Below are positions 1,753 through 59,762 of a stretch of DNA of 64,000 nucleotides, one piece after another. Position numbers and translations under genes: made by a program. The stretch covers positions 2,441-66,440 of the forward strand of contig CAUHSG010000010.1 of assembly GCA_959608885.1 (NCBI GenBank), given 5' to 3'. The notes beneath the pieces are model-generated. The model saw only the letters and a program-made list of their open reading frames with translations, ran no database searches and was not told the origin of the DNA. Position 1 is the first letter of the stretch, and every line of letters starts with the position of its first letter. The stretch comes from an uncultured Coriobacteriia bacterium. GTDB taxonomy: Bacteria; Actinomycetota; Coriobacteriia; Coriobacteriales; QAMH01.

Positions 1753-1781
1753 GACAAAAGTGCCCCGGCGATTTTTGTCAC
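1751..1781. repeat. REP-like palindromic element type 1 (orientation A)
   Basis: AAGACAAAAGTGCCCCGGCGATTTTTGTCAC overlaps the stop codon of the XRE-cupin gene. Confidence 0.75.
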
Positions 1782-11034: not shown

Positions 11035-11347
11035 CTTGCTCCGTTTGTCATGTGCCAGTGGAAGCGCTCCTCCCAACTGACCTGGTTTTTGACCCCACAC
11101 TCGCATACAGAAACTTTTGCCTGATACTATCTCACTACTCATTTTCTCGCCCGGGACACCGTATGTGACCTTAACGGACGGTACGTCTTACCCCTAAGAT
11201 GCGCCATGCTCGCGACCAGGAAACCCTGCCCGTTTACGTGGATCCTTTCGACCGCATCTGCCTTGGACTAGAACTGTTTTACCAGCTCGCAACCACAGAC
11301 TTGGGAGGAGCGAGTCTAGTGTATCACGCGGCAGATAATCGCGTGCG

Positions 11348-13636
11348 CTAGATTCTCCTCAAAACGAAGCAATGGTGGACCTTGGCATGTCGCTCGAAAT
11401 CCAAGGGTATGGTCTTGTCGGTGATGTTCACGACCTGCACGCCCGCACGTTCGATCGTCTCGCGGTCGAGCTTGAATCCACGTAGATTACACGAGAACAC
11501 CGCAGCACCCCCACGTGTCAGCAAGCGGCTCACGCCGATGAGCAGCTCGGCGTGGTCGCGCTGGACATCCCAGCCACGTTGGCGCATCTTCGCGGAGTTC
11601 GAGAAGGTGGGCGGATCGACGAAGATGAGGTCCCAGCGCATCTTCGTATGACGCGTCTGCTGGACCCACTCGACGCAATCGGCGCGCACGAACTCCTGAT
11701 GCCCGTTCATGAGACCGTTGAGTTCCATGTTGCGCTCGCCCCATTGCAGGTAGGTGTTCGAGAGGTCCACGCTCGTCGTGAACTTCGCCCCGCGCGCAGC
11801 GGCGTAGACGCTCGCCGTGCAGGTGTAGGCGAAGAGGTTGAGGAAGCTCTTGCCCGCGGCAAGCTTGCCGACGAGCTCGCGCGTATCACGATGGTCGAGG
11901 AAGAGCCCTGTGTCGAGATAGCTCGCGAGGTCGACTTCGAACAGCAGGCCGTTCTCCTGCGTGACGAGATGCCCGACCGGGCTGGATGAGTCAGACTGGT
12001 CAGCCCAGAAATCTGTCGCCGGGGCTGTTTTGTCGGGTGTTTTGACAGGCATCTTGGAACCAGACAAAACTGCCCCGGCGACTTTTGTCTGGTTCGCGTA
12101 TTGCGAGCCACCTTTGGCGCGCACGCGGCGCTTCACGAAGACGTCGTCTGCGGAAACGCCGAGTACGACGCTTGCGATGTTGAGGGCATCGGTCATGCGA
12201 CGAGCAGCCTTGCCGGCATCGATGCTCTTGGGAGGCGCGTACTCGGCGACATGCACGAGCCACCTGCCCGCATCCTTGCCCGCCCCTTCATAGAGGTCGA
12301 TGGCCATGTTGTAATCGGGCAAATCGGCATCGTATACACGGTAGGCCGAGACCTTGTTCTTGGCGGCCCATTTACGACGCTGCTTGTAGACCTTGTTGAG
12401 ACGGTCGGCGAATTGCTGGGAACCCGCATCGTAAACGGCGATGTCGCAATCTCGCACGTTCACCTGCGCGCGACGCCCCGCATCACCATGCAGGTCGAAG
12501 AGCGCGATTTCGCAAGAAGCGGAACCGTTCATGCATGCGAAGCCCTCGCTGCGCTCCATGCCCAGGTACGCATCGGCATCTTTGCCACCCACAAGCATGA
12601 CAGCGCAATCGAGCTGCTCGCATCCGAGAAGCTGTCGCGCAAGCTGCGCATAGCTTGCGGGCAAGATCGCCTCGGGGACCTCCGTGCCAACAAAAAGACA
12701 GCTCGCAAACATACCGCGTGTATCGGCGTGACGAGCAAGAGCGTCATCCAGGGCATCCTGGCTCGGCGCGAACTCGATGAGCGAAGCAACGGCAGCGGCC
12801 CTAGCACGCGCTTGCGCACAGGCTATCTCGCGATCGCGATCATCCGTTGCGTATATCACGACCTCTTTCGAACCTTCCTGGGCTCGCATGTCAGCCGCAT
12901 CGAGCACGTCGGTCCACAGCTTCTCGTCATGCCCAGACCAGCTGGTGAATCCCCAGCTAGAACGCATGATACCAGGTGCCCTATCACCGGCTATCAGCGC
13001 CGCCTCGATGGCAAGCGTACCCGCGGCGCACATGCTATCTACGAGCAGCTCGCCATGGCGCGCACGCTCGGGCCAACCCGCCGCAAGCAACATGGCCGCC
13101 GCAAGCGTCTCGTGTATGAAGGGAGAGGTGCTCCGCATGGCATCACGATACCCGCGGTCCTCGAGCGAGGTACCCGAGAGGTCGATGTAGATGGTTGCGC
13201 GCCTGGCATGCAGGTTCACCTGGATGCGCAGATCGGGATGCTGCGTATCAACATCGGGGCGTACGCCACGAAGCTCGCGCAAGCGGTCGCAGACGGCGTC
13301 CTTCACGCGTAGCGCTGTAAAGCGCGTGTCTCGAAGCTCGTCATTCGCCCCTCGGGCGCTTACGGCGATGGTCGCGTCCGGGGCGACATGCTCTTCCCAG
13401 GCGATGCCACGCACGCCAACATAGAGGCTGTCGGAATCCCTCGCCTCGACACGCCCGACTACCAACAGGATGCGGCTCGCAACGCGTGACCACAACAGCG
13501 CCGTGTACGCCTGCTCTAACCCAGCCTTAAACGCGACGCCGCCGGTCAGAGGACGAACCTCGTCCATCCCCAGCTCGCGCAGCTCCTGGCCAAGAACCGC
13601 CTCGAGCCCCGTGCCACATGTCGCAAAGAGCTCCAT
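11348..13636 (-). CDS. rlmL: fused 23S rRNA methyltransferase RlmKL-like (THUMP + two SAM-MTase modules)
   Basis: N-terminus MELFATCGTGLEAVLGQELRELG..(THUMP), DSMCAAGTLAIEAAL, and C-terminal MTase motif IFVDPPTFSNS. The inter-domain linker is encoded by REP doublet 12004-12094. Confidence 0.85.
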   Translation of the reverse strand: MELFATCGTGLEAVLGQELRELGMDEVRPLTGGVAFKAGLEQAYTALLWSRVASRILLVVGRVEARDSDSLYVGVRGIAWEEHVAPDATIAVSARGANDELRDTRFTALRVKDAVCDRLRELRGVRPDVDTQHPDLRIQVNLHARRATIYIDLSGTSLEDRGYRDAMRSTSPFIHETLAAAMLLAAGWPERARHGELLVDSMCAAGTLAIEAALIAGDRAPGIMRSSWGFTSWSGHDEKLWTDVLDAADMRAQEGSKEVVIYATDDRDREIACAQARARAAAVASLIEFAPSQDALDDALARHADTRGMFASCLFVGTEVPEAILPASYAQLARQLLGCEQLDCAVMLVGGKDADAYLGMERSEGFACMNGSASCEIALFDLHGDAGRRAQVNVRDCDIAVYDAGSQQFADRLNKVYKQRRKWAAKNKVSAYRVYDADLPDYNMAIDLYEGAGKDAGRWLVHVAEYAPPKSIDAGKAARRMTDALNIASVVLGVSADDVFVKRRVRAKGGSQYANQTKVAGAVLSGSKMPVKTPDKTAPATDFWADQSDSSSPVGHLVTQENGLLFEVDLASYLDTGLFLDHRDTRELVGKLAAGKSFLNLFAYTCTASVYAAARGAKFTTSVDLSNTYLQWGERNMELNGLMNGHQEFVRADCVEWVQQTRHTKMRWDLIFVDPPTFSNSAKMRQRGWDVQRDHAELLIGVSRLLTRGGAAVFSCNLRGFKLDRETIERAGVQVVNITDKTIPLDFERHAKVHHCFVLRRI
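12004..12094. repeat. REP doublet (REPIN-like; copy B 12004-12037 degenerate, copy A 12058-12094) inside the rlmKL ORF
   Basis: CCCAGAAATCTGTCGCCGGGGCTGTTTTGTCGGG, a 20-nt spacer, then AACCAGACAAAACTGCCCCGGCGACTTTTGTCTGGTT. It is translated as QTKVAGAVLSGSKMPVKTPDKTAPATDFW. Confidence 0.85.
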
Positions 13637-19650: not shown

Positions 19651-20375
19651 GAGCGCTCCTCCGCCCCGGAATCCGCCGAACAAGACAAATGTCGCCGGGG
19701 CAGTTTTGTCTGGTTTCGCAGGTTCAGGTCAAGCAAATCGACGATGCCATCGCGAATGCGCTCGTGCACCTGCTCGACGCTTCCGTTTGCGTCGACGATG
19801 CGCACACGCTCGGGCTCGGCGGCGGCGATCTCATCAAAGCCCGCGCGCAGACGTGTGCGAAACGCATCGCCGGCAGACTCCATGCGATCACCCGTGCCAT
19901 CGGCAGAGCGGCTCTCGACGCGCTCGCGCGCGACATCGTCATCGAGCACGAGCAACAGCGTGCGATCCGGATAGCGACCGCCGCAGGCAAGATCGTTCGT
20001 GGAGCGCACGAGGTTCGCGCCAAGCTCGCGGCCGTAGCCCTGGTAAGCGAGCGTGGAGTCGGTGAAGCGATCGCAGACGACGACCTCGCCGCGTGCAAGG
20101 GCGGGCTCGATGACCTCGTCCATCACCTGGGCGCGCGCCGCTTCGAAGAGCAGGAGCTCGGCGAGCGGTGTCATCGCGTCATCTTCCTTATCGAGGAGTA
20201 GCGCGCGGATCTTCTCGCCTAGGCGCGTACCGCCCGGCTCGTGCACGCGCAGCACCGTGCGACCCTGCTGCTCGAGCCAGCTGGCGAGAAGGTCGGCCTG
20301 CGTCGACTTGCCAACGCCGTCGTCGCCTTCGAGCGTGAGGAATATGCCCTCGGTGCTATCTGGTTTGCTATCCAT
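19647..20375 (-). CDS. tmk: thymidylate (dTMP) kinase with REP-encoded C-terminal extension
   Basis: P-loop LEGDDGVGKSTQ. The last ~26 residues (RNQTKLPRRHLSCSADSGAEERS) are read through REP 19681-19715. Confidence 0.9.
   Translation of the reverse strand: MDSKPDSTEGIFLTLEGDDGVGKSTQADLLASWLEQQGRTVLRVHEPGGTRLGEKIRALLLDKEDDAMTPLAELLLFEAARAQVMDEVIEPALARGEVVVCDRFTDSTLAYQGYGRELGANLVRSTNDLACGGRYPDRTLLLVLDDDVARERVESRSADGTGDRMESAGDAFRTRLRAGFDEIAAAEPERVRIVDANGSVEQVHERIRDGIVDLLDLNLRNQTKLPRRHLSCSADSGAEERS
19681..19715. repeat. REP-like palindromic element type 1 (orientation B) inside the tmk 3' end
   Basis: CAAGACAAATGTCGCCGGGGCAGTTTTGTCTGGTT. Confidence 0.85.
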
Positions 20376-20393
20376 GCGGATACGATGCTCCGT

Positions 20394-22943
20394 CTACTTC
20401 TTGGCGGTCTTCTTCTTGGCGGTCTTCTTCTTGGCCGTCGTCTTCTTTTTGGCCCCGCCGCTCGACTTCTTGGCCTTGTCGGCCTTCTCCTTTTCGCGCT
20501 TGGGGCAGTTCATGTTCACGCAGATACGCCACGGACCGCGTGCCGTCGACACGACGACCTCGGGCGCACCGCACTCGTCGCAGACCTCACCCGTGGCGGT
20601 GATATCGCCGCGCTGCGGCAGCGGGTAGCTCACGTCGCACTGCTCAAAGTTCTCGCAGCGGATAAAGCGCTTGAGCGTACGCGGGTTCTTCTGCGCGATG
20701 AGCTTGCCCTCGCGACCGGCCTCTTTGCAGACCGCGCACTCGCCGACGACAATTTCCTCCATCTTGTTGGTGGGGCACTCGGGGTCGAGACAGTGGTTGT
20801 ACGGCTTCTGCCTGAACGGCGTAACCTTGATCTGTGGGCCGCCGCAGGTGGAACACGGCTCCTCGAGCGCCTCGTAGCGGCCCTGCGGTAGCGGGTAGGT
20901 CACGTCACAATCCGGCCAGTTGTTGCAGCCGACGAAGCTCGAACGCGTCTTGGCCGAGGTCTTCACGCACAGGTCACCGCCGCACTTGGGGCAGACGCCC
21001 ACACGACTGTCGGCCGTGACCGCGTCGGAAATCATGTCGGCGATCGCGTCCTTCTCGGGGATGAGGGCGTCGATGATGCCGCCGAGCAGCTCGCGCGAGT
21101 GCAGCACAACCTCGTCACGCTGGCGCTTGCCATCGGCGACCTGCGTCATCTCGCCTTCGAGCTCGGCGGTCATGTCGGGCGTCGTGATGGTCTTGGCGAA
21201 CTTCTCGAGCGCGTCGATGATGGCGATGCCAAGCTGGGTGGGCTCGATGGGGTCATTCACGATGTAATGACGGCTGTAGAGGCGCTCGATCATGTCGTGG
21301 CGCGTGGCCTTCGTGCCCAGGCCCTTTGCTTCCATCTCCTGCACGAGCTTGCCCGACGAGAAGCGCGCGGGAGGCTCGGTCTGCTTGTGGGCGCAATCGG
21401 CATCCCAGAAGTCGAGCGTCTGGCCCTCAATGAGAGGCGGCATCTGCTCGTCCTTCTTGAGGCCGTACGGATACACGCTGCGATAACCCGGCTCGACGAG
21501 CACGTCACCGCGAGCGGTGAAGGGCTCGCCCTCGACATCGAGCGTAACCTTGGTGGATTCGAGGACGGCAGCCTCGGACAGCGTCGCCATGAAACGGCGG
21601 CAGATGAGGCTGTAGAGCTTCCACTCCTCAGGACGCAGCTTGTCGGGATCGGCAGCGCCCGTGGGATAGATGGGCGGGTGGTCGGTCGTCTCCTGCTTGC
21701 CGCGCGTGGCCGTGAGCTTGCCCTTGGCAAGCAGCATCTCGGCGCCCTCGCGGAAGTCGGGGACCTTGGCGAGGATGTTGAGCACCTCGCGCAAATCGAG
21801 GTTGTCGGGGTACACGGTGTTGTCAACGCGCGGATACGAGGTGTAGCCGTTCATGTAGAGCGACTCGGCGATGCGCATGGTGCGCGCCGGCTTGATGCCG
21901 ATGGAGCTTGCCGCCGCCATGAGCGAGGTGGTGTTGAACGGAGCCGGCGGGTTGGACTTGCGGCGCTTCTTCTCGATGGTGCCGACCGTCGCCTCGCTCG
22001 CGTTGGCGATGCGAGCCATGACGCCGTCCGCCTCGTCCTTATCCTTGAAACGCGCGGTGGCATGCGTGGCGGTGAAGGCATCGTCATGCTCGCCCTTGAG
22101 TGCGGCGGTGCCGGTGATGACCCAGTAGTCCTCGGGAATGAAGGCATCGCGCTCCTTCTCGCGCTCGACCACGAGGGCCAGCGTCGGGGTCTGGACGCGA
22201 CCGGCGGAGCGTGTGTTGCCGATGCCGCTGTACTTCACGCAGGTGAGGTAGCGCGTGAGCACGGCACCCCAGATGAGGTCAATGTACTGGCGTGTCTCGC
22301 CGGCATGCGCGAGGTCATAGTCGAGCGTCTGCAGCTTGGCGGGAGAGAACGCATCCTCGATCTCCTTCTTCACGAAGGCCGAGTAGCGGGCGCGCGTGAT
22401 GGGGGCGGTCTCGTTCACCTCGCGTACCACGGAGATGGCGTCGAGGCCGATGAGTTCGCCCTCGCGGTCGAAGTCGGTGGCGATGACGATATCGTCGGCC
22501 TTCTTCGCGAGGTTCTTGAGCGAGCGGATGATGTCCTTCTCGGCCGGAAGCTTGACGATGGGCGCGTAGGTGAGATAGGGCAACGAAGGAATCTTCCAGC
22601 CCTTGAGATTGATGCCCTCGGGAATGTAGGGACGACGTTTCGACTTCCACGGCGGCGTGGGAAGCGACTTGGGGACGTCCGGCGCGTCGATGACCTCGCC
22701 GTCTTCTTCGAGACCGACCCAGCCGTTCTTCTTCTTGTAGATGAGCTCCTGCGGGAAGTCGAGACCGAGGATGTGACCCTTGAGTCCGATGGCGACGCAC
22801 TCGTGACCATCGCGATTGAAGCGATATACAGGCGTGTTGTAGACCTTGTCGTCAACGGGCTTGCCGCCCTGGGCAAGGAGACGCGAGATCTGCTGCGCTG
22901 CGATGTTCTTCTCGGTAATGATCAGTTCCATGTTGTCCATCAC
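20394..22943 (-). CDS. topA: type IA DNA topoisomerase (TopA) with four C-terminal zinc ribbons and a Lys-rich tail
   Basis: TOPRIM (ELIITEK.., ATDFDREGELIG). Four Cys4 modules (CPKCGG..CNNWPDC, CSTCGG..CLDPEC, CAVC..CENFEQC, CDECG..CVNMNC). The tail is KKKTTAKKKTAKKKTAKK. Sits in the topA-tmk-holB neighbourhood. Confidence 0.9.
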   Translation of the reverse strand: MMDNMELIITEKNIAAQQISRLLAQGGKPVDDKVYNTPVYRFNRDGHECVAIGLKGHILGLDFPQELIYKKKNGWVGLEEDGEVIDAPDVPKSLPTPPWKSKRRPYIPEGINLKGWKIPSLPYLTYAPIVKLPAEKDIIRSLKNLAKKADDIVIATDFDREGELIGLDAISVVREVNETAPITRARYSAFVKKEIEDAFSPAKLQTLDYDLAHAGETRQYIDLIWGAVLTRYLTCVKYSGIGNTRSAGRVQTPTLALVVEREKERDAFIPEDYWVITGTAALKGEHDDAFTATHATARFKDKDEADGVMARIANASEATVGTIEKKRRKSNPPAPFNTTSLMAAASSIGIKPARTMRIAESLYMNGYTSYPRVDNTVYPDNLDLREVLNILAKVPDFREGAEMLLAKGKLTATRGKQETTDHPPIYPTGAADPDKLRPEEWKLYSLICRRFMATLSEAAVLESTKVTLDVEGEPFTARGDVLVEPGYRSVYPYGLKKDEQMPPLIEGQTLDFWDADCAHKQTEPPARFSSGKLVQEMEAKGLGTKATRHDMIERLYSRHYIVNDPIEPTQLGIAIIDALEKFAKTITTPDMTAELEGEMTQVADGKRQRDEVVLHSRELLGGIIDALIPEKDAIADMISDAVTADSRVGVCPKCGGDLCVKTSAKTRSSFVGCNNWPDCDVTYPLPQGRYEALEEPCSTCGGPQIKVTPFRQKPYNHCLDPECPTNKMEEIVVGECAVCKEAGREGKLIAQKNPRTLKRFIRCENFEQCDVSYPLPQRGDITATGEVCDECGAPEVVVSTARGPWRICVNMNCPKREKEKADKAKKSSGGAKKKTTAKKKTAKKKTAKK

Positions 22944-22976: not shown

Positions 22977-23957
22977 ATGGCTTACAATTACCCGCGGATA
23001 CAGGCGGGCGGGGCCGAAAGGCCTCAGTTGCTCGATTTTAACCATATATATAAGGTTCTGGCTACCTCCATTTTGGAAACGATTAGCCCCACGCGCTGTG
23101 TCGTATGCGACGAGCCCGGCGATGTCCTCTGCGCACGCTGCGCCGCCTCCCTCCCCTTCATCGACCTCGCGCTTGCGTGCTCGCGTTGCGGCGCACCCTA
23201 TGGGCATGCGCTGTGCACCGAGTGCCCCATGCCCGGCAGCGAGGCTGCGCTGCAGCATCCCGAAGAGGCGTTCCCGTTCACGCGCGCGCGGGCGGCACTT
23301 TCGTTCGAAGAAGGCGCGAAGAAGGTCATCCGTACCTACAAGGACGGTGACGAGCTGCGACTCGACGCAGTCATCGCGTCGATCATCTGCTCCGCGATCC
23401 GCATGAGACAAATGGACAGGTCACTTGTCTCACTATCGACAGGTACCAGTAATTTTTGGGACAAATGGACAGGTCATTTGTCTCAAAGCTTCAGCGAGGC
23501 AGAGCAGAGTCAAGAAATCGCCTCGCCCCCTCTTCGCGACTGGTCACAATGGGCAGGTGCGCTCGTGTACGTCCCGGCTTCGCCCGAAGCGTTGTTGAGA
23601 CGCGGGTTCGACCACATGGAGCGCGTGGCACGGATTGTTGCGCAACGCACGGGGCTGCCACTCGTGCGGGCACTCGAAAGCGGCAAGGGCGCGCAGGATC
23701 AACGCAATCTGGGGCGCAGCGAGCGATTGGCAAATCGCAGCGAAAGCTTTTCGCTGGCGGATAGCATGCGACCGGGAGCGCGGAGGACGGCTGACACGGG
23801 CAATCAGGCGGTGATGAGCGCGGATGTGGTGCCGCGGCGCATCATCCTCATCGATGACGTCTTCACGACAGGCGCGACGCTCTCGGCAGCAACGCGGGTG
23901 CTCCTCGGCGGTGGCGCTCACGAGGTCCGTGTCGTCACTTGCTGCCGCGTGTGGTGA
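22977..23957 (+). CDS. comF: ComF family protein (PRTase-like), start uncertain
   Basis: N-terminal CVVCDEPGDVLCARC..CSRCGAPYGHALCTEC and C-terminal PRT motif ILIDDVFTTGATL. The middle contains two type-2 hairpin repeats read in frame. Confidence 0.75.
   Translation: MAYNYPRIQAGGAERPQLLDFNHIYKVLATSILETISPTRCVVCDEPGDVLCARCAASLPFIDLALACSRCGAPYGHALCTECPMPGSEAALQHPEEAFPFTRARAALSFEEGAKKVIRTYKDGDELRLDAVIASIICSAIRMRQMDRSLVSLSTGTSNFWDKWTGHLSQSFSEAEQSQEIASPPLRDWSQWAGALVYVPASPEALLRRGFDHMERVARIVAQRTGLPLVRALESGKGAQDQRNLGRSERLANRSESFSLADSMRPGARRTADTGNQAVMSADVVPRRIILIDDVFTTGATLSAATRVLLGGGAHEVRVVTCCRVW
23404..23485. repeat. two type-2 hairpin repeats (23404-23432 and 23458-23485) inside comF
   Basis: TGAGACAAATGGACAGGTCACTTGTCTCA and GGGACAAATGGACAGGTCATTTGTCTCA. 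Confidence 0.8.
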
Positions 23958-23991
23958 CCAGACAATTGTCGCCGGGGCACTTTTGTCTTAT
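23957..23991. repeat. REP-like palindromic element type 1 (orientation B)
   Basis: ACCAGACAATTGTCGCCGGGGCACTTTTGTCTTAT starts at the last base of the comF stop codon. Confidence 0.85.
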
Positions 23992-24146
23992 TCGCCCGGT
24001 TACGAACCACTTGTCACATCAAGAAGAGCTTGGAACTCAGGGCAAGTCCGATATTGCTCGGTTATCAGTCTGCTATCAATCGGCTTTCATTCCATAATCG
24101 TCCAGATTGCTGGGGTAGATGTCTCGGCGCTCTCCCACATAGCATG

Positions 24147-24180
24147 GGACAAATGTCGCCGGGGCACTTTTGTCTGGTTT
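24147..24180. repeat. REP-like palindromic element type 1 (orientation B)
   Basis: GGGACAAATGTCGCCGGGGCACTTTTGTCTGGTT, 39 nt upstream of the RAYT ATG. Confidence 0.85.
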
Positions 24181-24218
24181 CGAGACATTTGCCACATTAC
24201 GATGAGATGGGAGTCCGC

Positions 24219-24971
24219 ATGTCCAAACATCGAATAAAAAGTGAGGGAGATATCTATCATGTAACCTCACGAGGAACAGGAAAACAGCTGATCTTTGAAG
24301 ATGACGATGACCGCCGGTTTTTTCTCCGCCTGCTTCACGAGACCCTTTCGAGTCACGCCGTCGATCTGTACGCCTGGTGCTTGATGGACAATCATTTTCA
24401 TTTGCTTCTTCATGGCGCGCTCGAAACCGTATCACTATGCATGCGTCATCTTTGCAGCAGCTATGCACGCCGATTCAACGAAAGAGCCGGTCGCACGGGA
24501 CATCTCTTTCAGGGGCGTTTCGGAAGTGAGGCAATCGATACCGACGCCTATTTGCTAATTGTCGTCAGGTACATTCACAAGAATCCCGAGAAGGCGGGGC
24601 TCGCGCACACTTCAGCGTATCGCTGGTCAAGCTACCGAGAGTATCTCGGGCATCCGACACTCTGTAAAACGCAGTTCGTCCTTGATGTATTTGGTGACAA
24701 GCAGGCGTTCGCAAGTTTTCATGCGCAGAATGACGAAGAGGCCGGATGTCTGGATGTTGACATGTCCAGAATGGCAAAGAGAAAAGCAATTGACGCACGG
24801 GCACTTCGCAAGGCGCAGAGAGTCATGGCTGGTATGAAATTGACCGACCTCAAGACGCTCCCGAAGAAAACCCGCGATGCACATCTTCGTGACATGAAAC
24901 GGTCCGGCCTTTCCATTCGCCAGATAGAGCGACTCACCGGAATAGGGCGCAATGTAGTCGCCAACGCATAA
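24219..24971 (+). CDS. rayT: REP-associated tyrosine transposase (RAYT; IS200/IS605-like Y1 HUH enzyme) with C-terminal DnaA_C-like HTH
   Basis: HUH motif CLMDNHFHLLLHG and Tyr motif VRYIHKNPEKAGL. The C-terminus SGLSIRQIERLTGIGRNVVANA is HTH-like. ATG 24219 is preceded by GATGGGAG. Confidence 0.85.
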   Translation: MSKHRIKSEGDIYHVTSRGTGKQLIFEDDDDRRFFLRLLHETLSSHAVDLYAWCLMDNHFHLLLHGALETVSLCMRHLCSSYARRFNERAGRTGHLFQGRFGSEAIDTDAYLLIVVRYIHKNPEKAGLAHTSAYRWSSYREYLGHPTLCKTQFVLDVFGDKQAFASFHAQNDEEAGCLDVDMSRMAKRKAIDARALRKAQRVMAGMKLTDLKTLPKKTRDAHLRDMKRSGLSIRQIERLTGIGRNVVANA

Positions 24972-25005
24972 TCAGACAAAACTGCTCCGGCGACTTTTGT
25001 CTCAT
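24971..25005. repeat. REP-like palindromic element type 1 (orientation A)
   Basis: ATCAGACAAAACTGCTCCGGCGACTTTTGTCTCAT overlaps the stop codons of both the RAYT gene and the convergent NhaC gene. Confidence 0.85.
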
Positions 25006-26300
25006 TTGCGGTTGAGGGCGATGCTGATGAGCACGCAGGCAAGCAACAGGAACTGGTAGAACAAGAACGGCATGATCTCGATGCTCGCGATGCCGGCGAG
25101 ACTCGCTGCGACGAGAAGCTGCGCGCCGTAGGGGATGATGCCCTGCCCGATGCAGCTGAAGATGTCGATGAGGCTCGCGACGCGCACGGGCTCGATACCG
25201 TACTCCTCGCCGATGTGCTTGGCGATGGGACCGGAAACCACGATGGCTACCGTATTGTTCGCGCAGGCTACGTCGAGCAGCAGCGTGAGCAGGCCACAGC
25301 CGAGCTCGCCACCGCGCTTGCCGGTGAAATGCCGCTTGATGAAGGCCAAAATGGACGCGAAGCCCCCGTGCTCCCGCATGAGCGCGCTGATCGATGCCAC
25401 CAGAATCGTGACGATCATCGTCTCGAACATGCCCGCCGTTCCCGTGCCCATGGCCGAGAACGCGCTCGCGAAATCGAGCGATCCCGTCACCGTGCCCACG
25501 ATGGCGAACAGCACGATGCCGCCGCCAAGCACGAGAAAGACGTTGATGCCGCACAACGCAGCGATGAGCACGACGAAGTACGGAATCGCCTGCCAGATGT
25601 TGTACTCGAAATCGTCGAGCGAGGGCGTGCCGGCCATAATCGCCATCACGATGAGAATGCCGAGCGTGATGAGCGCCGCCGGCAAGGCGATGTGGAAGTT
25701 GTTGAAGAACTTATCCTTCATGTTGACGCCCTGCGTGCGGGTCGCCGCGATCGTGGTATCCGAGATGAACGAGAGGTTGTCGCCGAACATCGCGCCGCCC
25801 ACGACGGTTCCCACGCACAGCGGCAGGTTGAAGCCCGCGCTGGCTGCGACCGTCACCGCAATGGGCGTGAGCACCGTGATAGTTCCCACGCTCGTGCCCA
25901 TGGCGAGCGAGATGATGCAGGCGATGACGAAGAGGCCGGGGATGGCCGCCTGGGCGGGCAGGATGTCGAGCAGCAGGTTCGCCGTGCTCTCGGCCCCGCC
26001 GGCCGCGCTCGCGATGCCGGAAAACGCACCGGCCATCAGGAAGATGAAGAGCATGATGACGATGTTGTCGTCACCGATGCCGCGTGCGCACACGTGAATC
26101 TTCTCGTCGAAGGACAGCGAACGGTTCTGCAGGAACGCGACGACGAGCGCGATAACGAAGGCCACGACGACGCTCACCACGTAGAAGCCCATCTGTCCTT
26201 CGGCGGGAGCGATGTACTCGAAATAGATGCCGCACCCGAGGTATAGCACCAGGAAGACGACGATGGGCAGCAATGCCTTTGCGTTTGGTTTCTTATCCAT
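25002..26300 (-). CDS. Na+/H+ antiporter NhaC family
   Basis: Polytopic membrane protein with NhaC-like segments (GDNLSFISDTTI, FSCIGQGIIPYGAQLL). I chose start MDKKPNAK; 26318 is an alternative. Confidence 0.8.
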   Translation of the reverse strand: MDKKPNAKALLPIVVFLVLYLGCGIYFEYIAPAEGQMGFYVVSVVVAFVIALVVAFLQNRSLSFDEKIHVCARGIGDDNIVIMLFIFLMAGAFSGIASAAGGAESTANLLLDILPAQAAIPGLFVIACIISLAMGTSVGTITVLTPIAVTVAASAGFNLPLCVGTVVGGAMFGDNLSFISDTTIAATRTQGVNMKDKFFNNFHIALPAALITLGILIVMAIMAGTPSLDDFEYNIWQAIPYFVVLIAALCGINVFLVLGGGIVLFAIVGTVTGSLDFASAFSAMGTGTAGMFETMIVTILVASISALMREHGGFASILAFIKRHFTGKRGGELGCGLLTLLLDVACANNTVAIVVSGPIAKHIGEEYGIEPVRVASLIDIFSCIGQGIIPYGAQLLVAASLAGIASIEIMPFLFYQFLLLACVLISIALNRK

Positions 26301-26405
26301 GTCGCACATAATAGCCAAAGTCTCATGCGGCGTGAACCCGCCGCATGCGGGCGCTTGGTGGTATCATCCGCCTAAGTGTTTTTAAGCGAAGGCGGTGCAA
26401 ACAGC

Positions 26406-27569
26406 ATGGTGGGAGAGAATCTTCCGCGTTCCCTGAAATGGCAGCCAGCGCTCGAGGGATGGGTTCCCAGCGCGTTGACCACGGCAAATCTTGATGATGC
26501 GGCAGCGCGGCTGACGGTGCTCGACCAGCGTCTCCTGCCACATTCGATTGATTACATCGACTGCTTCACCTCCAAGCAGGTGTGCGACGCAATCGAGGAG
26601 CTTGCGGTGCGCGGCGCCCCGGCTATCGGCATTGCCGGCGCGTTTGCCCTCGTGTTGTGGGCGAAGAACGAGTGGCCTGTCATCCGCGAGGCGAAGCGTC
26701 AGGCTAATCCCAAGAGCGATGTCGATTCCGTCACCGTGTTTGCGAGCAAGCTCGAGCAGCGTGGTCGAGAGATTGCGGCGGTGCGCCCGACGGCTGTCAA
26801 TCTCGCCTGGGCAATCAACGAGCTCGTGGCACCCGCGCGCATGGCGGCTTACCGAGGCGAAAGTGCTGACAGAATCACCGATGACCTCGAAGAGCATGCC
26901 TGCCAGCTCATGGAAGACGAGATCTACTCCTGCAAGCTCATCGGCGAGAACGGTGCCGTGATCATCTCCACGCTCGCCCAGCGCCTGGGCCGCCCTCTGC
27001 GCATCGAAACGCATTGCAATGCCGGTGCGCTCGCGACGGCTGCTTGGGGCACGGCGACGTCCATCATCTACCATGCTTTCGAGAACGGCGATGTAGAGAA
27101 GGTTTGGGTCGACGAGACCCGTCCCATTGAGCAAGGCGCGCGTCTTACCGCATGGGAGCTCGAGCAAGCCGGCGTGCCCTACACGCTCATCAGCGACAAC
27201 ATGGCCGGCTCCATCATGGGCCAGGGGCTCGTGGATGCCGTCATCGTTGGTGCCGACCGCGTCTGTGCCAACGGCGATGTGGCGAACAAGATCGGCACGT
27301 ATCCGCTGGCCATCGTGGCGAGCTATCATGGCGTGCCGTTCTTCGTGGCAGCTCCGCACTCGACCTTCGACAAGTCGCTCGTCACGGGCGATGAAGTCGT
27401 CATCGAGCAACGCGATGCCACCGAGGTGCGCTGCATGCCCTACGGTCACCAATGGCTTCCCATAGCGCCGACCGAGTGCGACGTGTTCAATCCCGCATTC
27501 GACATCACGCCGAACGAGCTCATCACCGGTGTCATCACCGAAACCGGCATCGAATTTGCCGGCGAGTAA
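26406..27569 (+). CDS. mtnA: S-methyl-5-thioribose-1-phosphate isomerase
   Basis: LDQRLLP, VRGAPAIGIAGAFAL, HCNAGALAT and VGADRVCANGDVANKIGTY motifs. Confidence 0.9.
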   Translation: MVGENLPRSLKWQPALEGWVPSALTTANLDDAAARLTVLDQRLLPHSIDYIDCFTSKQVCDAIEELAVRGAPAIGIAGAFALVLWAKNEWPVIREAKRQANPKSDVDSVTVFASKLEQRGREIAAVRPTAVNLAWAINELVAPARMAAYRGESADRITDDLEEHACQLMEDEIYSCKLIGENGAVIISTLAQRLGRPLRIETHCNAGALATAAWGTATSIIYHAFENGDVEKVWVDETRPIEQGARLTAWELEQAGVPYTLISDNMAGSIMGQGLVDAVIVGADRVCANGDVANKIGTYPLAIVASYHGVPFFVAAPHSTFDKSLVTGDEVVIEQRDATEVRCMPYGHQWLPIAPTECDVFNPAFDITPNELITGVITETGIEFAGE

Positions 27570-27571
27570 AC

Positions 27572-27602
27572 TGAGACAAAGTGGTCTGACCAACCTGTCT
27601 CA
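27572..27602. repeat. type-2 hairpin repeat
   Basis: TGAGACAAAGTGGTCTGACCAACCTGTCTCA, 3 nt after the mtnA stop. Confidence 0.8.
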
Positions 27603-27709
27603 TCGAGCCACTTGCCCGCAGGTACGAGCGGGCGCATCCTCCCCGCCCTGCATGTGGTAAAGTAGCGAGCTTGCAGGGAATCGAACGTAGGCATGCAAAG
27701 GACGTTTTC

Positions 27710-28264
27710 GTGTTCGGAATAAGTGGCACGGAACTGGTGATTATCCTGTTCTTCGGTTTCCTCATCTTCGGGCCGGAGAAGCTGCCCCAGATGGGGCGCA
27801 CCGTAGGACGGGCAATCAGGCAGTTCAGAAACGCCTCGGAGGCGGCGAACAAGAAATTCAAGGAAGAGGTCGCCGACCCCTTCCAGGAGGCCATTGCTCC
27901 CTACAAGGACCAGGTCGAAGAGTCGACCAAGCCCATTCAAGAAGACATCTCCGCCATCAACGACACGCTCAACGAGACGAAGAGCATGTTCACCGACCCA
28001 TTCAAGGACATGTTCGGCAGCTCAACGAGCGCTCCCGCGAGCAAGCCCGGTGCGGCGATTTCCGGTGGCGTTGCAAGCGAAGCGACCGCTCCCACGCCGG
28101 CAGCCAACGAGTCGGCATCCGATGACCCATTCGCGTCGGTTCTCGATAACGCGTCCGCCGAAAAGCCCGAGGGCAAACCCATCCCCGAAGCGGGTGGCAC
28201 CGTCAAGAAGAAGAGCATGGCGGCGAGTCTCTACGATCTCGATGACGAGAAGGGCGGTGAGTGA
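27710..28264 (+). CDS. tatA: twin-arginine translocase TatA/TatB-type subunit with long C-terminal tail
   Basis: GTG start gives (M)FGISGTELVIILFFGFLIFGPEKLPQMGR. Confidence 0.75.
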   Translation: MFGISGTELVIILFFGFLIFGPEKLPQMGRTVGRAIRQFRNASEAANKKFKEEVADPFQEAIAPYKDQVEESTKPIQEDISAINDTLNETKSMFTDPFKDMFGSSTSAPASKPGAAISGGVASEATAPTPAANESASDDPFASVLDNASAEKPEGKPIPEAGGTVKKKSMAASLYDLDDEKGGE

Positions 28265-28286
28265 CGTGCCCATCGGTCCCGCACGT

Positions 28287-29027
28287 ATGCCGCTCATGGA
28301 CCATATCGGCGAACTGCGCCGTCGCATCGTCATCATCGTCGTCGCGATCGCGGTTACGGTCTGTTTCATGTACCTGCTCGCGCCCTACCTCATCGACTTT
28401 CTCATCCTTCCCGTGAGCGACTACGTGACCGATGTTTACGTGACCGGCGCGTTCGAGGGTTTCTCTCTGAAGTTCCGCGTAGCGCTCTTCATGTCGGTTC
28501 TCGTCTGCAGCCCGCTCATCTTCTGGGAGCTACTCGCATTCTTCCTGCCCGCGCTGCGTCCCAACGAGCGCCGTTACGTGCTGCCCACGTTCTTCGTGGC
28601 CGTCGCGCTCTACGTGCTGGGCATGGTGTTCTGCTATTGCTTCTGCCTCAACCCCGCGTTCCAGTTCCTCACGACCGAGAGCATGTCCATCGGCCAGATT
28701 CTTCCGCAGGCAACCGACTACCTGCACTACATCATCCTGTTCGAGCTAGCTTTCGGCCTGGCCTTCGAGCTGCCTCTCGTGGTGTTCTTCCTCATCTTGT
28801 TCAACATCGTTCCCTATAAGAAGATGCGCGCCAGCTGGCGTGGCATTTACGTGGGGCTGCTCGTGCTCGCCGCTGTCGTGACACCGGATGCGTCGCCTGT
28901 GACGATGGGCATCATGTTCGCCGCGCTGCTCGCACTCTACGAGGTATCGCTCGCGGCTGCACGCATCGCGCTCGCGCGCAAGATCAAGCGCCAGCGCGAG
29001 GAAGAGGAAGCGGAGATGGCCGCATAA
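28287..29027 (+). CDS. tatC: twin-arginine translocase subunit TatC
   Basis: MPLMDHIGELRRRIV start and six predicted TM segments. The stop overlaps the hypA ATG (TAATG). Confidence 0.85.
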   Translation: MPLMDHIGELRRRIVIIVVAIAVTVCFMYLLAPYLIDFLILPVSDYVTDVYVTGAFEGFSLKFRVALFMSVLVCSPLIFWELLAFFLPALRPNERRYVLPTFFVAVALYVLGMVFCYCFCLNPAFQFLTTESMSIGQILPQATDYLHYIILFELAFGLAFELPLVVFFLILFNIVPYKKMRASWRGIYVGLLVLAAVVTPDASPVTMGIMFAALLALYEVSLAAARIALARKIKRQREEEEAEMAA

Positions 29028-29398
29028 TGCACGAGTTATCGCTGGTACAGGGCATCTTCGACTCGGTCGTTCCCGTTGCGCGGCAAAACGGCGCGACCAA
29101 GATCACGGGCATCAGGCTCACCATCGGCGAGATGACGATGGTCGTACCCGAGGCAATGGAGTTTGCGTTCGAGGCGCTTTCCGAGGATGATCCGCTGCTT
29201 GCTGGCTGCGTGCTCGAGATGGACTTCGTGGCGCCGAAATCGCGCTGCCTGGACTGCGGCAACGAGTTCGAGCATGATCGCTTCCATAGCCACTGCCCCG
29301 CGTGTGATTCGGCTGCGACCGTCCTGATTGCGGGACGCGAGCTCGACATCGCTTCCATGGAGATCGAAACGCCCGATGACGAGGATGAGCCTGCGTAG
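29027..29398 (+). CDS. hypA: hydrogenase nickel-insertion protein HypA
   Basis: MHELSLVQGI start and CLDCG..CPACDS zinc site. Confidence 0.9.
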   Translation: MHELSLVQGIFDSVVPVARQNGATKITGIRLTIGEMTMVVPEAMEFAFEALSEDDPLLAGCVLEMDFVAPKSRCLDCGNEFEHDRFHSHCPACDSAATVLIAGRELDIASMEIETPDDEDEPA

Positions 29399-29460
29399 GG
29401 CTCAACGTATGGTGCGCCATGGGGCCGATTCCCTCTGGCGCATCGAGAGAGAAGGACGAC

Positions 29461-30111
29461 ATGGCTCACATCGACCTGGAAACCAAGATTCTGAACAAGA
29501 ATGACGAAGGCGCTGCGGCAAATCGCGCCCTGCTCGACGAGAAGGGCATCTACATGGTCAACGTGCTGGCGAGCCCCGGGTCGGGCAAGACCTCGACCAT
29601 CGTGGCGACCATCAATGCGCTGCGCGACAAATACAACATTGCCGTCATCGAGGGCGATATCGCGAGCGACGTCGATTCGCAGACCATCAAGGCCCTGGGT
29701 ATTCCCGCGGTGCAGATCAACACTGCCGGTGCCTGTCATCTCGAGAGCGACATGCTGCGTCGCGCCCTTGACGTGCTCGACTTGGACGACATCGACCTCA
29801 TCTTCATCGAAAACGTGGGGAACCTCGTATGCCCGGCGGACTTCTACCTGGGCGAGAATATCAAGATGATGATCCTGTCGGTGCCCGAAGGCGATGACAA
29901 GCCACTCAAGTACCCCGGCATGTTCCAGGTGGCCGATGCCATCATCCTCAACAAGGTCGACGTGATGCCGGCCTTCACCTTTGACAAGGCGCTTTTCGAC
30001 GAGCACATCGAGCGCCTCAACCCTGGCGCGCCGAGCTTTGCCATCGCCGCAACCAAGGGTGACGGCGTTGACGAGTGGGCCGACTGGCACTCTGCCCAGA
30101 TCCACAAATGA
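29461..30111 (+). CDS. hypB: hydrogenase nickel-incorporation GTPase HypB
   Basis: ASPGSGKTS P-loop, IEGDIAS and IENVGNLVCP motifs. ATG 29461 follows GAGAGAGAAGGA. Confidence 0.9.
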   Translation: MAHIDLETKILNKNDEGAAANRALLDEKGIYMVNVLASPGSGKTSTIVATINALRDKYNIAVIEGDIASDVDSQTIKALGIPAVQINTAGACHLESDMLRRALDVLDLDDIDLIFIENVGNLVCPADFYLGENIKMMILSVPEGDDKPLKYPGMFQVADAIILNKVDVMPAFTFDKALFDEHIERLNPGAPSFAIAATKGDGVDEWADWHSAQIHK

Positions 30112-30198
30112 GACAAAGGCCGCCGGGGCGCTTTTGTCTGGTTGTGGGACCGGCGTCTCGAAACCAGACAAAAGCGCCCCGGCGGCATTTGTCTGGTT
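30109..30198. repeat. REP doublet (REPIN-like; B copy 30109-30143, A copy 30162-30198)
   Basis: TGAGACAAAGGCCGCCGGGGCGCTTTTGTCTGGTT, an 18-nt spacer, then AACCAGACAAAAGCGCCCCGGCGGCATTTGTCTGGTT. It lies between convergent hypB and ahcY. Confidence 0.9.
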
Positions 30199-31541: not shown

Positions 31542-31577
31542 ATAAGACAAAGTTGCCCCGGCGATATTTGTCTGGTT
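31542..31577. repeat. REP-like palindromic element type 1 (orientation A)
   Basis: ATAAGACAAAGTTGCCCCGGCGATATTTGTCTGGTT. Confidence 0.85.
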
Positions 31578-31938: not shown

Positions 31939-31969
31939 ATGAGGCAAATGACCTGTCCATTTGTCTCAT
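31939..31969. repeat. type-2 hairpin repeat (inner loop is the reverse complement of the comF copies)
   Basis: ATGAGGCAAATGACCTGTCCATTTGTCTCAT. Confidence 0.8.
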
Positions 31970-35337: not shown

Positions 35338-35368
35338 ATGAGACAGATGCTCTGAGCAGCTGTCTCAT
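35338..35368. repeat. type-2 hairpin repeat between feoA and feoB
   Basis: ATGAGACAGATGCTCTGAGCAGCTGTCTCAT. Confidence 0.8.
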
Positions 35369-39353: not shown

Positions 39354-40256
39354 ATGCGCCAACATCGCAAGAATGAGACAAATGCCCTGGGCAAATGTCT
39401 CATTTTGCTGCTCGTCGCAGCGCTCGCGCTGTTGCCGGGATGCTCATCGGCGCTGTCATCGCTGCCAACGACGGGACTCCCCTCGGGCGTCGAGTACACC
39501 GATCTTGGCACCCCCAACTTTGGCGAGCTTGCCGGACAAACCGAATCCTTCGAGGAGTACAGCCCGCTTGACGCGCTGGGGCGCTGTGGTGCGGCGACCG
39601 CGTGCATCGGTCGTGACCTCATGCCCACCAAGGAGCGGGGGCAGATCAGCTCCATCAAGCCCACGGGCTGGCAGCGCGCCGAGTACGACTTCATCGACGG
39701 CGGCCTGCTCTACAATCGCTGCCACCTCATCGCCTACAGCCTCACCGCCGAAGACCTCAACGAGCGAAACCTCATCACTGGCACGCGGCAGATGAACCTC
39801 GCGATGACCGAGTTCGAGAAACTCGTGTGCGACTACGTGGAAGACACCGGCAATCACGTGCTATACCGGGTCACGCCCGTATTCGAGGGCGTCGAGCTCG
39901 TCGCGCGGGGCGTGCAGATGGAGGCACTTTCCATGGAGGATAACGGCGAGGCTATCTGCTTCAACGTCTTCATCCCCAACGAACAAGACGGCGTTGGCAT
40001 TGACTATCTAACAGGGTATAGCTGGCTAGCTGGAGAGAGTGGAGGCACGGGCTCGAAGAACGGCGAAGGCGCTGCCGGGAGAAGTGGCGACGAGACCACG
40101 TGCGTCTACGTGCTCAACACGAGCAGTAAGCGCTTCCACCTCCCCACCTGCGATTCCGTCCCCACCATCAGCGCGAAGAACAAAGCCGAAAGTGATAAGT
40201 CCCGTGACGAATTGATAGCCGAGAGCTACAAGCCCTGCGGCAGCTGCAAGCCGTAG
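39354..40256 (+). CDS. secreted lipoprotein DNA/RNA nuclease (EndA/DNA-entry-nuclease-like) with C-terminal Cys motif domain
   Basis: Lipobox LLPGC, nuclease core YNRCHLIAYSL..ITGTRQMN, and C-terminus RFHLPTCDS..YKPCGSCKP. The signal n-region is encoded by type-2 repeat 39373-39403. Confidence 0.8.
   Translation: MRQHRKNETNALGKCLILLLVAALALLPGCSSALSSLPTTGLPSGVEYTDLGTPNFGELAGQTESFEEYSPLDALGRCGAATACIGRDLMPTKERGQISSIKPTGWQRAEYDFIDGGLLYNRCHLIAYSLTAEDLNERNLITGTRQMNLAMTEFEKLVCDYVEDTGNHVLYRVTPVFEGVELVARGVQMEALSMEDNGEAICFNVFIPNEQDGVGIDYLTGYSWLAGESGGTGSKNGEGAAGRSGDETTCVYVLNTSSKRFHLPTCDSVPTISAKNKAESDKSRDELIAESYKPCGSCKP
39373..39403. repeat. type-2 hairpin repeat inside the nuclease signal-peptide coding region
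   Basis: ATGAGACAAATGCCCTGGGCAAATGTCTCAT, translated as NETNALGKCLI. Confidence 0.8.
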
Positions 40257-59330: not shown

Positions 59331-59406
<76 letters not shown>

Positions 59407-59428: not shown

Positions 59429-59464
59429 AACCAGACAAAAGCGCTCCGGCGACATTTGTCTGGT
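59429..59464. repeat. REP-like palindromic element type 1 (orientation A) between the two tRNAs
   Basis: AACCAGACAAAAGCGCTCCGGCGACATTTGTCTGGT. Confidence 0.85.
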
Positions 59465-59538: not shown

Positions 59539-59615
59539 TGGTGGGCCTTACAAGATTCGAACTTGTGACCTCACGATTATCAGTCGTGCGCTCTAGCCAA
59601 CTGAGCTAAAGGCCC
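59539..59615 (-). tRNA. tRNA-Ile (anticodon GAU)
   Basis: The reverse complement is GGGCCTTTAGCTCAGTTGGCTAGAGCGCACGACTGATAATCGTGAGGTCACAAGTTCGAATCTTGTAAGGCCCACCA. Acceptor stem GGGCCTT/AAGGCCC, anticodon loop CT-GAT-AA, and an encoded CCA. Confidence 0.9.
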
Positions 59616-59729: not shown

Positions 59730-59762
59730 ATGAGACAGCTTGGTCAGACCAAACTGTCTCAT
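59730..59762. repeat. type-2 hairpin repeat downstream of gyrA
   Basis: ATGAGACAGCTTGGTCAGACCAAACTGTCTCAT is a nearly perfect 15-bp hairpin. Confidence 0.85.

Follow-up and report, generated by a model that had tools for sequence, protein, structure and literature searches.

Systems composed of repetitive extragenic palindromes (REPs) and a REP-associated tyrosine transposase (RAYT) have been studied almost only in Proteobacteria. Of the RAYT groups, only the gammaproteobacterial ones numbered 2 and 3 were found to be strongly associated with REPs (Bertels et al. 2017, PMC5581495), and the RAYTs of Pseudomonas reportedly evolve like housekeeping genes (Bertels and Rainey 2011; Bertels et al. 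2017, PMC5581495). The unpaired GTAG tag is essential in the E. coli system (PMC8266576); other subclasses have REP types without GTAG. The name TIRYT designates RAYT-like enzymes with terminal inverted repeats (TIRs) on either side (Di Nocera et al. 2013, PMC3733652). They were equated with subclass 2.1 of the TnpA_REP enzymes, into which 20 of the 26 TIRYTs fall (Quentin et al. 2018, PMC6006769). Members of this subclass are long proteins with a Y---NP signature and with tails resembling Bac_DnaA_C, HTH_23 or HTH_28, all three described for 2.1.2 (Quentin et al. 2018, PMC6006769). Here, a candidate system of this kind is described in an uncultured Coriobacteriia bacterium (Actinomycetota), on a 64,000-nucleotide stretch of contig CAUHSG010000010.1 that is called the window throughout. 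It comprises a single gene for an HUH/Y1 nuclease and a dispersed family of 37-nt REPs, called type-1 REPs, three of which surround the gene. By analogy with the proteobacterial systems, the ensemble is probably REPtron-like, i.e. the enzyme would recognise and cut single-stranded REP hairpins and so spread its cognate class.

The enzyme gene (24219-24971, + strand) codes for a nuclease of RAYT/TIRYT type of 250 residues. An alternative in-frame ATG at 24207 (+ strand) gives a 254-residue version, which is the one called in a public ENA assembly on a 1,653-nt contig identical to the window. The HUH motif NHFHLLLH (nt 24390-24413, + strand, residues 58-65) is followed by the tyrosine motif RYIHKNPEKAGL (nt 24567-24602, + strand, residues 117-128), in which Tyr118 is encoded at 24570-24572 (+ strand), and by WSSY at residues 136-139. 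Two REPs in the same orientation precede the gene. The distal one (23956-23992, + strand, core 23961-23987) is abutted or overlapped at its foot by the stop TGA (23955-23957) of a comF-like open reading frame (ORF). The proximal one (24143-24179, + strand, core 24148-24174) lies 40 nt before the start codon and is nested in an outer inverted repeat (24111-24126 / 24181-24196). The downstream REP (24970-25006, - strand, core 24975-25001) is inverted relative to the upstream pair, as judged from its asymmetric loop; the stop TAA of the enzyme gene (24969-24971) and that of the convergent Na+/H+ antiporter gene (25002-25004) are located at or in its feet. A previous sequence-only reading of this stretch had proposed an ORF carrying HUH and catalytic tyrosine motifs, two REPs in one orientation upstream with one inverted downstream, and a gene AT-richer than the surrounding chromosome. 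The core matches at 23961 (+), 24148 (+) and 24975 (-) agree with the second point. The GC content of the gene is 0.51 against 0.60 for the window, and at third codon positions 0.54 against 0.71-0.88 in the neighbouring genes, in agreement with the third. As for the first, the profile search that it had suggested gave a match to Y1_Tnp (PF01797) over residues 13-122 (E 1.5e-11), whose 44.9 bits lie well above the cutoff of 23.

The same domain was found in all 31 of 31 homologues. Across their alignment H59, H61, Y118, N122, P123 and W136-S137-S138-Y139 are invariant and the C-terminal GLSIRQIERLTGIGRN is nearly so. The stretch Y118-I-H-K-N122-P123 corresponds to the Y---NP signature of class 2 TnpA_REP-like enzymes. 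The only substantial NCBIfam match was REP_Tyr_transpos (NF047646; 72.7 bits, E 2.7e-20, model positions 2-145 of 146). Homologues at E <= 0.001 numbered 2,188. The best 120 are nearly all full length (94-100% query cover) and 47-100% identical; the named ones among them are called either 'transposase', in MAGs (metagenome-assembled genomes) of Coriobacteriaceae and Atopobiaceae, or 'REP element-mobilizing transposase RayT'. Since automatic annotation already labels some of them RayT, the gene family is not unknown. An exhaustive profile search returned 6,377 cluster representatives at E <= 1e-30, of which the top 150 nearly all span the full profile and mostly measure about 245-265 residues.

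Sequence searches of the PDB missed or barely reached Y1 enzymes: single-sequence phmmer retrieved none and the sequence profile reached 4ER8, a structure of the E. coli RAYT with a REP hairpin bound, only at E 0.14. A fold search was therefore needed. The AlphaFold (AF2) model of the enzyme has a mean predicted local distance difference test score (pLDDT) of 86.5. Its best Foldseek match in the PDB is 4ER8 (E 1.8e-6, TM 0.72, root-mean-square deviation (rmsd) 2.9 A), at the head of 28 first matches that are all Y1 enzymes. The IS608, ISDra2 and IS200 transposases rank after it, with E >= 3e-4 and rmsd of 5-13 A. Rather than clustering with ordinary IS200 transposases, the enzyme thus has 4ER8 as its best fold match, and no IS200 NCBIfam model matched it at E <= 1.

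The domains, catalytic residues and fold of the enzyme are established by these results. By blastp, it was compared with the RAYTs and TIRYTs whose sequences Di Nocera et al. (2013, PMC3733652) give in their Additional file 5. All 16 long TIRYTs matched it at E 2e-34 to 5e-22, the best being two from S. maltophilia, Smlt4509 (48% over 128 residues, E 2e-34) and Smlt1152 (36% over 211 residues). Canonical RAYTs were found at E 6e-12 to 0.016, the upper value being that of E. coli b228. By sequence, the core is TIRYT-type rather than that of a canonical gammaproteobacterial RAYT, and it would be subclass 2.1-like because 20 of 26 TIRYTs sit in subclass 2.1 (PMC6006769). The designation of the gene as a RAYT in the sequence-only reading is thus supported, with a correction: a Y1/HUH enzyme of REP-associated type does lie between inverted dispersed repeats, but it is not a canonical RAYT.

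The C-terminal 60 residues are modelled as a confident five-helix helix-turn-helix (HTH) domain (pLDDT 91.6). Homologue alignment, HTH profiles and the fold model place it at about residues 205-250 (GLSIRQIERLTGIGRN, nt 24831-24968, + strand). Among the 31 homologues, HTH_7 was detected in 11 (best E 4.5e-5) and HTH_23 in 7. The extra HTH announced by the sequence-only reading is accordingly present as a generic small HTH, but its proposed resemblance to DnaA domain IV was not reproduced by any of four approaches. The Bac_DnaA_C profile matched neither the enzyme nor the 31 homologues. No DnaA appeared among the PDB profile matches, headed by protein A repeats that were discarded as a short-motif artefact, nor among the top 50 Foldseek matches of the C-terminal model. 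Finally, hhalign found no match to a manually entered sequence of E. coli DnaA domain IV.

The REP family was defined from 101 distinct copies, collected from the window and from loci of related MAGs and oriented by their asymmetric loop. The element is 37 nt long, aA(c/t)(c/g)A-GACAAAwGTCGCCGGGGCACTTTTGTC-T(g/c)(g/a)TT, without conservation outside these limits. Its 27-nt core, GACAAATGTCGCCGGGGCACTTTTGTC, matches 15 times in the window with <=3 mismatches against 0.00 expected from shuffles. Three more degenerate copies at 1062, 12008 and 36085 bring the total to about 18 type-1 REPs, i.e. about one per 4 kb, mostly at gene ends. At that density (18 per 64 kb), the presence of three in a span of 1,050 nt has a Poisson P of 0.003. 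Dispersed copies include one at 1753-1779 (- strand) and others starting at 1062, 5733, 8150, 31546, 32580, 36085, 41018, 52134 and 59434. A bias in REP orientation was considered and dropped, with 7 copies on the + and 8 on the - strand. No Rfam family matched the REPs. A scan of GTDB for the REP pattern, with one genome per species, gave at least 90 further stretches, and the matches listed are mostly uncultured gut Coriobacteriia, Coriobacteriaceae and Collinsella MAGs.

In the hairpin, the left arm varies at positions 6-8 and the right arm hardly at all, and a perfect 14-bp stem exists in only 1 of the 101 copies. The feet are symmetric (AACCA...TGGTT, AATGA...TCATT, AATAA...TTATT). Folded as single-stranded DNA, the downstream REP gives -9.9 and -12 kcal/mol (z -4.3 and -4.7). 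A REPIN-like doublet of two oppositely oriented REPs (30107-30198, with 30112+ and 30167-) folds into one long hairpin of -47.1 kcal/mol (z -10). About half of the singlets bear a 3' extension, TGGTTTCGnGAC; since it matches the doublet spacer, many singlets may be read as half-doublets, as this extension suggests. Feet at 1753, 8150, 23961, 24975, 30112 and 32580 hold the stop codons of neighbouring genes, as TGA/TAA directly before GACA or as TAA/TGA before CCAGACA. With the palindromic feet AATGA/TCATT and AATAA/TTATT, stop codons are available whichever strand is read.

Such features can be understood in another manner, namely that the REPs are host regulatory or structural elements (mRNA 3'-end stabilisers, gene-end modules that bring a stop codon, or protein binding sites) that spread or persist without the enzyme, whose gene would happen to lie where repeats abound. 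We regard this as quite improbable. It would account for the many REPs standing exactly at gene ends, with feet that supply or overlap stops (1753, 8150, 23961, 24975 on both sides, 30112, 32580), for the several copies tolerated in frame inside genes and for the abundance of window-type REPs in a MAG whose syntenic enzyme has another flanking class. It does not account for three copies within 1 kb of the gene (P about 0.003), nor for an inverted arrangement that recurs in about 10 independent lineages, each with a lineage-specific hairpin. The repertoires of REP classes are also entirely different from one close relative to the next, and follow the enzyme allele. Nor did the terminator scan of the gene's strand find a T-tract of terminator type. 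A host role is in any case compatible with enzyme-driven spread, both being accepted for E. coli REPs.

The comparison with relatives, whose loci are designated by L numbers, bears directly on the link between enzyme and REPs. Enzymes 52-62% identical to that of the window are encoded in L092, L094 and L096 in the same order topA, comF-like, enzyme. The gene has this topA-comF position in L069, L104 and L105 as well, and at least seven genomes carry the enzyme there, with 52-78% identity. Inverted hairpins were observed on both sides of the gene in every lineage examined (window, L092, L094, L096, L098/L101, L069, L031, L103, L104, L105), with a REP just upstream of the ribosome-binding site in all. 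The flanking hairpin differs between them: it is GAGACAAATAC-ACAGG-GTATTTGTCTC in L092, GGGACAAATGACCTGTCCATTTGTCCC in L094, GAGACAAAAGTTCGTCCGACGAACTTTTGTCTC in L096, GAGACAAATGCTCGCACTCGCTGTCTC in L069, GAGACAAATGACCGGGTAACTGTCTC in L098 and GACAAATGTTGCCTGTCATCTTTTGTC in L103. In four of the five genomes checked, the flanking class is also dispersed locally. Copies beyond the immediate flanks of the gene number 12 in the window, 7 in L092 and 5 in L094, and the sampled loci of MGYG-HGUT-02686 (164 kb) hold 13 copies in all of the flanking class of their own RAYT. REP classes exclude one another between genomes with 85-99% identity in their housekeeping proteins: L092 has nine copies of its own class and none of the window type, and the orthologous stretch of the window has window-type copies and none of the L092 type. 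Enzyme allele and REP class are apparently matched across related genomes, though not one-to-one.

Several observations weigh against a simple enzyme-REP pairing and against the REPtron-like reading as a whole. The loci of MGYG-HGUT-02686 are rich in window-type REPs though their syntenic enzyme is flanked by another class, and the flanking classes of L096 and L098 were not seen elsewhere within 20 kb. The window itself holds four REP classes but one enzyme gene. The score of the enzyme against REP_Tyr_transpos, 72.7 bits, is a near miss under the curated equivalog cutoff of 80 bits, so that the enzyme is not assigned to this equivalog. No unpaired GTAG-like tag (GT[AG]G) is conserved at the hairpin foot in the 101 copies; as GTAG is essential in E. 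coli, the choice of cleavage site is not transferable from the E. coli model to these tag-less REPs. Isolated hairpins are moderately stable, the proximal upstream REP reaching -5.3 kcal/mol (z -1.3). Lastly, no flanking REPs were found for subclass 2.1 by Quentin et al. (2018, PMC6006769).

The flanking hairpins being inverted like terminal repeats, the REP-gene-REP unit could itself be mobile, as an IS200/IS605-like insertion sequence (IS) or a 'TIRtron', with the dispersed REPs as deletion derivatives comparable to miniature inverted-repeat transposable elements. Homologues do occur in other contexts: L098-L101 have theirs between opp operons, the one of L031 follows a different gene, and that of C. 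aerofaciens is located between nifU and sufU. Yet the topA-comF position is shared by at least seven genomes whose enzymes are only 52-78% identical. The window contains one copy of the gene, and about 600 kb of REP-bearing loci from related MAGs yielded no identical copy and only two further homologues, which are 54% and 40% identical, whereas many identical copies, as the sequence-only reading had pointed out, would indicate an active IS. No tnpB partner exists among the ORFs of the window, and, as said, no IS200 NCBIfam model matched. Homologues are also rare on plasmids (26 of 72,556 records, the sole full-length one being a mislabelled 900-kb piece of chromosome) and in viral contigs (8 loci, 30-43% identity). 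A mobile unit is, on balance, unlikely.

The mislabelled 900-kb record, labelled as a plasmid yet carrying rho, argS and the suf operon, is that of Collinsella aerofaciens (L102, NZ_OY725717.1). At 219.9-221.8 kb (locus 19971-20783), it encodes a 270-residue paralogue, 38% identical and annotated 'transposase', which has HVR instead of the HUH motif and Ser at the position of the catalytic Tyr, whereas the HTH is preserved. The 40 kb around it contain no REPs. The homologue at 5723-6611 in L031 (Coriobacteriales MAG Gx485_bin20), 40% identical, has flanking hairpins with a near window-type loop, GACAAAAGGGGCCGGGGCAAAACTGTC. Such a loop at so distant a homologue indicates that the loop type is older or more widespread than the close alleles suggest.

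The history of the gene differs from that of its surroundings. Alignments of six relatives to the window break off at 23381-23402 and resume at 24996-25014, leaving an unaligned block of 1.6 kb (23402-25013) that comprises the 3' half of comF, the REPs and the enzyme gene. At the left edge of this cassette stand two REP-like hairpins (23405-23431 and 23458-23484, - strand), in frame in the comF-like ORF (22977-23957); they are not of the window's own class but of the L094 class, which flanks the enzyme gene in L094. The right edge coincides with the downstream REP. In L092 and L094, too, a REP of the own class is located inside comF (L092:9528, L094:9408). Between these genomes, neighbouring proteins are 85-99% identical against 52-62% for the enzyme and 66-72% for ComF. 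With respect to L104, the synonymous divergence (dS) of cobW is 0.15 while that of the enzyme gene is saturated, with a non-synonymous divergence (dN) of 0.23. With respect to the closest allele, L103 (78% identity), the dN/dS ratio of the enzyme gene is 0.126/0.82 = 0.15. The gene is AT-richer than its host in 9 of 9 lineages checked (GC 0.45-0.52 against 0.55-0.63). Steady vertical descent of one gene fits poorly with these data. Both the composition in every lineage checked and a synonymous divergence far above that of the neighbours would agree with a unit that moved or was exchanged, but the discordant history is also explained, with no transposition of the unit, by an exchange via homologous recombination in the conserved flanks. 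In the simplest reading, functional alleles under purifying selection would have been exchanged at a fixed locus. The gene had been called domesticated in the sequence-only reading; this is right as to the fixed topA-comF position, but by dS and by protein identity the cassette has a history different from, and older than, that of its neighbours.

One may tentatively go further and suppose that the enzyme allele sets the REP class of a genome, so that each swap of the cassette at the fixed locus is followed by replacement of the REP population; we consider this possible rather than probable. If this were true, an HTH-bearing TIRYT-type enzyme would be a highly productive mobiliser of REPs, contrary to the published view of the subclass. 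The relatives would then also offer a natural series of matched enzyme-hairpin pairs in near-isogenic backgrounds, in which recognition without a GTAG guide could be studied.

A conserved non-coding leader of about 110 nt (24036-24146, + strand), delimited by aligning the window with L103 and L104, lies between the upstream REPs and has many invariant columns across alleles whose proteins are 67-78% identical. It ends with GGTAGATGTCTCGG...CACATAGCATG, directly before the proximal REP. The leader had no match in Rfam, its consensus folding on three sequences showed no compensatory pairs, and a promoter scan of the gene's strand found no sigma-70-like site on the + strand within it. An N-terminal extension of the protein through this spacer (ORF from TTG 24030) was rejected, as indels in L103 break the frame.

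Orthologous sites show how REPs come and go, and the comparison of their presence across relatives that had been proposed beforehand revealed that they are gained and lost and that one class can take the place of another. The REP at the tmk/holB junction (19679-19715, + strand, core 19684) is present in L007 and L028; the site is empty in L092, L093 and L096, and is occupied in L094 by the class of that genome. At 30112/30167, the doublet of the window is replaced by a single REP in L057 and by a different class in L096 and L086. At 31546, each lineage has a different REP class. This gain, loss and turnover imply ongoing or recent mobilisation. The reading frame of tmk apparently continues through the REP at 19679-19715, which would form the 3' end of this gene; the ORF reaches an ATGA overlap with holB, and tmk is about 20 codons longer in the window than in L092, where the REP site is empty.

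REPs are also associated with rearrangements. A 5.1-kb block (25013-30117) from the Na+/H+ antiporter gene to cobW is inverted with respect to L092, L093, L094, L095, L104 and L105, and has the orientation of the window in L096, L097 and L069. Both breakpoints (24970-25006 and 30107-30198, the right one being the doublet) fall exactly at REPs in every genome compared. The enzyme could accordingly be viewed as a domesticated DNA-binding or recombination factor that uses REPs through its HTH for rearrangement or regulation without mobilising them. The breakpoints of the inversion and the two edges of the cassette, all exactly at REPs, would suit such a factor, as would the high conservation of the HTH and the REP just upstream of the ribosome-binding site in all lineages. 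Nevertheless, purifying selection has kept the catalytic His, His and Tyr invariant, REPs are gained, lost and replaced by other classes at orthologous sites, and the paralogue of C. aerofaciens that has neither HUH nor Tyr sits in 40 kb devoid of REPs, although this is a single example. We hold this view to be highly improbable.

For the REPtron-like reading, the established arrangement and dispersal of the REPs, the matching of alleles to classes and the turnover at sites can be combined into a mechanism modelled on E. coli TnpA_REP and on the TnpA of IS608 and ISDra2. A REP would fold into an imperfect hairpin when the DNA is single-stranded, e.g. at the replication fork. The enzyme would recognise the hairpin, its loop and its GACA foot, and Tyr118 would cut beside it with the help of a metal ion held by His59 and His61, after which the ends would be rejoined. 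REP singlets or doublets could thereby be excised and inserted, and the repeat family maintained. The HTH would probably bind the duplex or the foot of the hairpin, or contribute to autoregulation via the REP located 10-40 nt before the ribosome-binding site. What this scheme says about the binding and cutting of REPs, about the strand and the site that are cut and about the function of the HTH is inferred from the E. coli and IS608 systems.

Other REP-like features of the window are as follows. Further hairpin classes share the GACA...TGTC foot (23405, 23458, 31941, 35342, 39377, 59734). The hairpin at 35342-35364 belongs to one of them (AATGA-GACAG...CTGTC-TCATT), and similar ones are located at 39377-39399, 59734-59758 and 31941-31967. 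A doublet at 12008-12089 (12008+, degenerate, and 12063-) lies in frame in an ORF (11348-13636, - strand) for an RlmKL-like bifunctional rRNA methyltransferase, where it occupies the linker between RlmL, THUMP and UPF0020 domains (residues 2-290) and a Methyltrans_SAM domain (residues 555-713). At this position of the linker, the relative L028 carries an insert that is shorter and belongs to another REP class. The type-1 REP at 59434 stands between two tRNA genes (59334-59406 and 59542-59615, both - strand), where it is conserved in five related loci, and a raiA RNA motif was found at 11068-11309 (- strand, 155 bits). Most metagenome contigs with enzyme genes (P0001, P0002, P0121, P0150 and others) measure only 1-3 kb. 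Such short contigs may fit assemblies that break at the flanking repeats or at a strain-variable cassette.

With these findings in common human-gut Coriobacteriaceae, the range of REP systems becomes wider in hosts as well as in enzymes. Closely related genomes that differ in enzyme allele and REP class constitute a ready panel for specificity without a GTAG guide. REPs are moreover linked with the breakpoints of an inversion, with the edges of a replaceable cassette and with insertions that lie in frame in genes of essential type. Repeats and strain-variable cassettes may also fragment metagenome assemblies of these taxa.

Compared with described systems, the enzyme most resembles the TIRYTs and TIRtrons in sequence: they provide its best matches and share with it a long protein with a C-terminal extension, the Y---NP signature and a serine motif after the tyrosine. 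Some TIR families, e.g. that of S. maltophilia 1152, are in addition self-complementary and repeated. In contrast, published TIRYTs are flanked by long TIRs whereas each flank is here a complete short hairpin of a dispersed family, and their tails (…GxPLGxxxF…KRGRP) do not align with the HTH of the window enzyme. The TIR motif GGGGWSAS agrees at 4-6 of 8 positions with the feet TGGGACAA, TGAGACAA, CCAGACAA and TAAGACAA; its one exact match, GGGGACAG, is upstream of the enzyme gene in L098. The hosts recorded by Di Nocera et al. (2013, PMC3733652) are Proteobacteria, Cyanobacteria, Chloroflexi, the PVC (Planctomycetes-Verrucomicrobia-Chlamydiae) group, Chlorobi, Bacteroidetes, Spirochaetes and Thermotogae, and Actinomycetota is not among them. 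No report of REPs in Actinobacteria/Actinomycetota was found in the literature surveyed, which includes that work, and a search combining repetitive extragenic palindromes with Coriobacteriia returned nothing relevant. The impression of the sequence-only reading that REP/RAYT systems are uncharacterised in such organisms is thus confirmed within the surveys consulted.

The IS200/IS605 TnpA proteins of IS608 and ISDra2 are comparable in their HUH/Y1 fold, in the recognition of subterminal hairpins and in a single-strand mechanism. They differ by a weaker fold match, the lack of an IS200 family match, and the tnpB partner and multiple identical copies that are missing here; the flanks described here do not form distinct left and right ends, being inverted copies of a single palindromic family. 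E. coli TnpA_REP (RAYT group 2, 4ER8) is the best fold match; its gene, single-copy in E. coli as it is within the 64 kb of the window, is likewise surrounded by inverted dispersed REPs, with imperfect stems and doublets. Its sequence similarity is nonetheless marginal (blastp E 0.016, profile E 0.14), the enzyme has 165 residues and no HTH, and E. coli REPs need an unpaired 5' GTAG that is absent here. The Pseudomonas REPIN-RAYT systems offer the same picture of doublets forming long hairpins, of singlets that look like decayed halves, here sharing the 3' extension TGGTTTCGAGAC, and of one enzyme gene per repeat class at a fixed position. In contrast with those housekeeping-like RAYTs, the enzyme is here 52-62% identical next to neighbours at 85-99%, with saturated dS. 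What is new is therefore the combination of an HTH-bearing TIRYT-type enzyme, dense tag-less REPs, an Actinomycetota host and a replaceable cassette.

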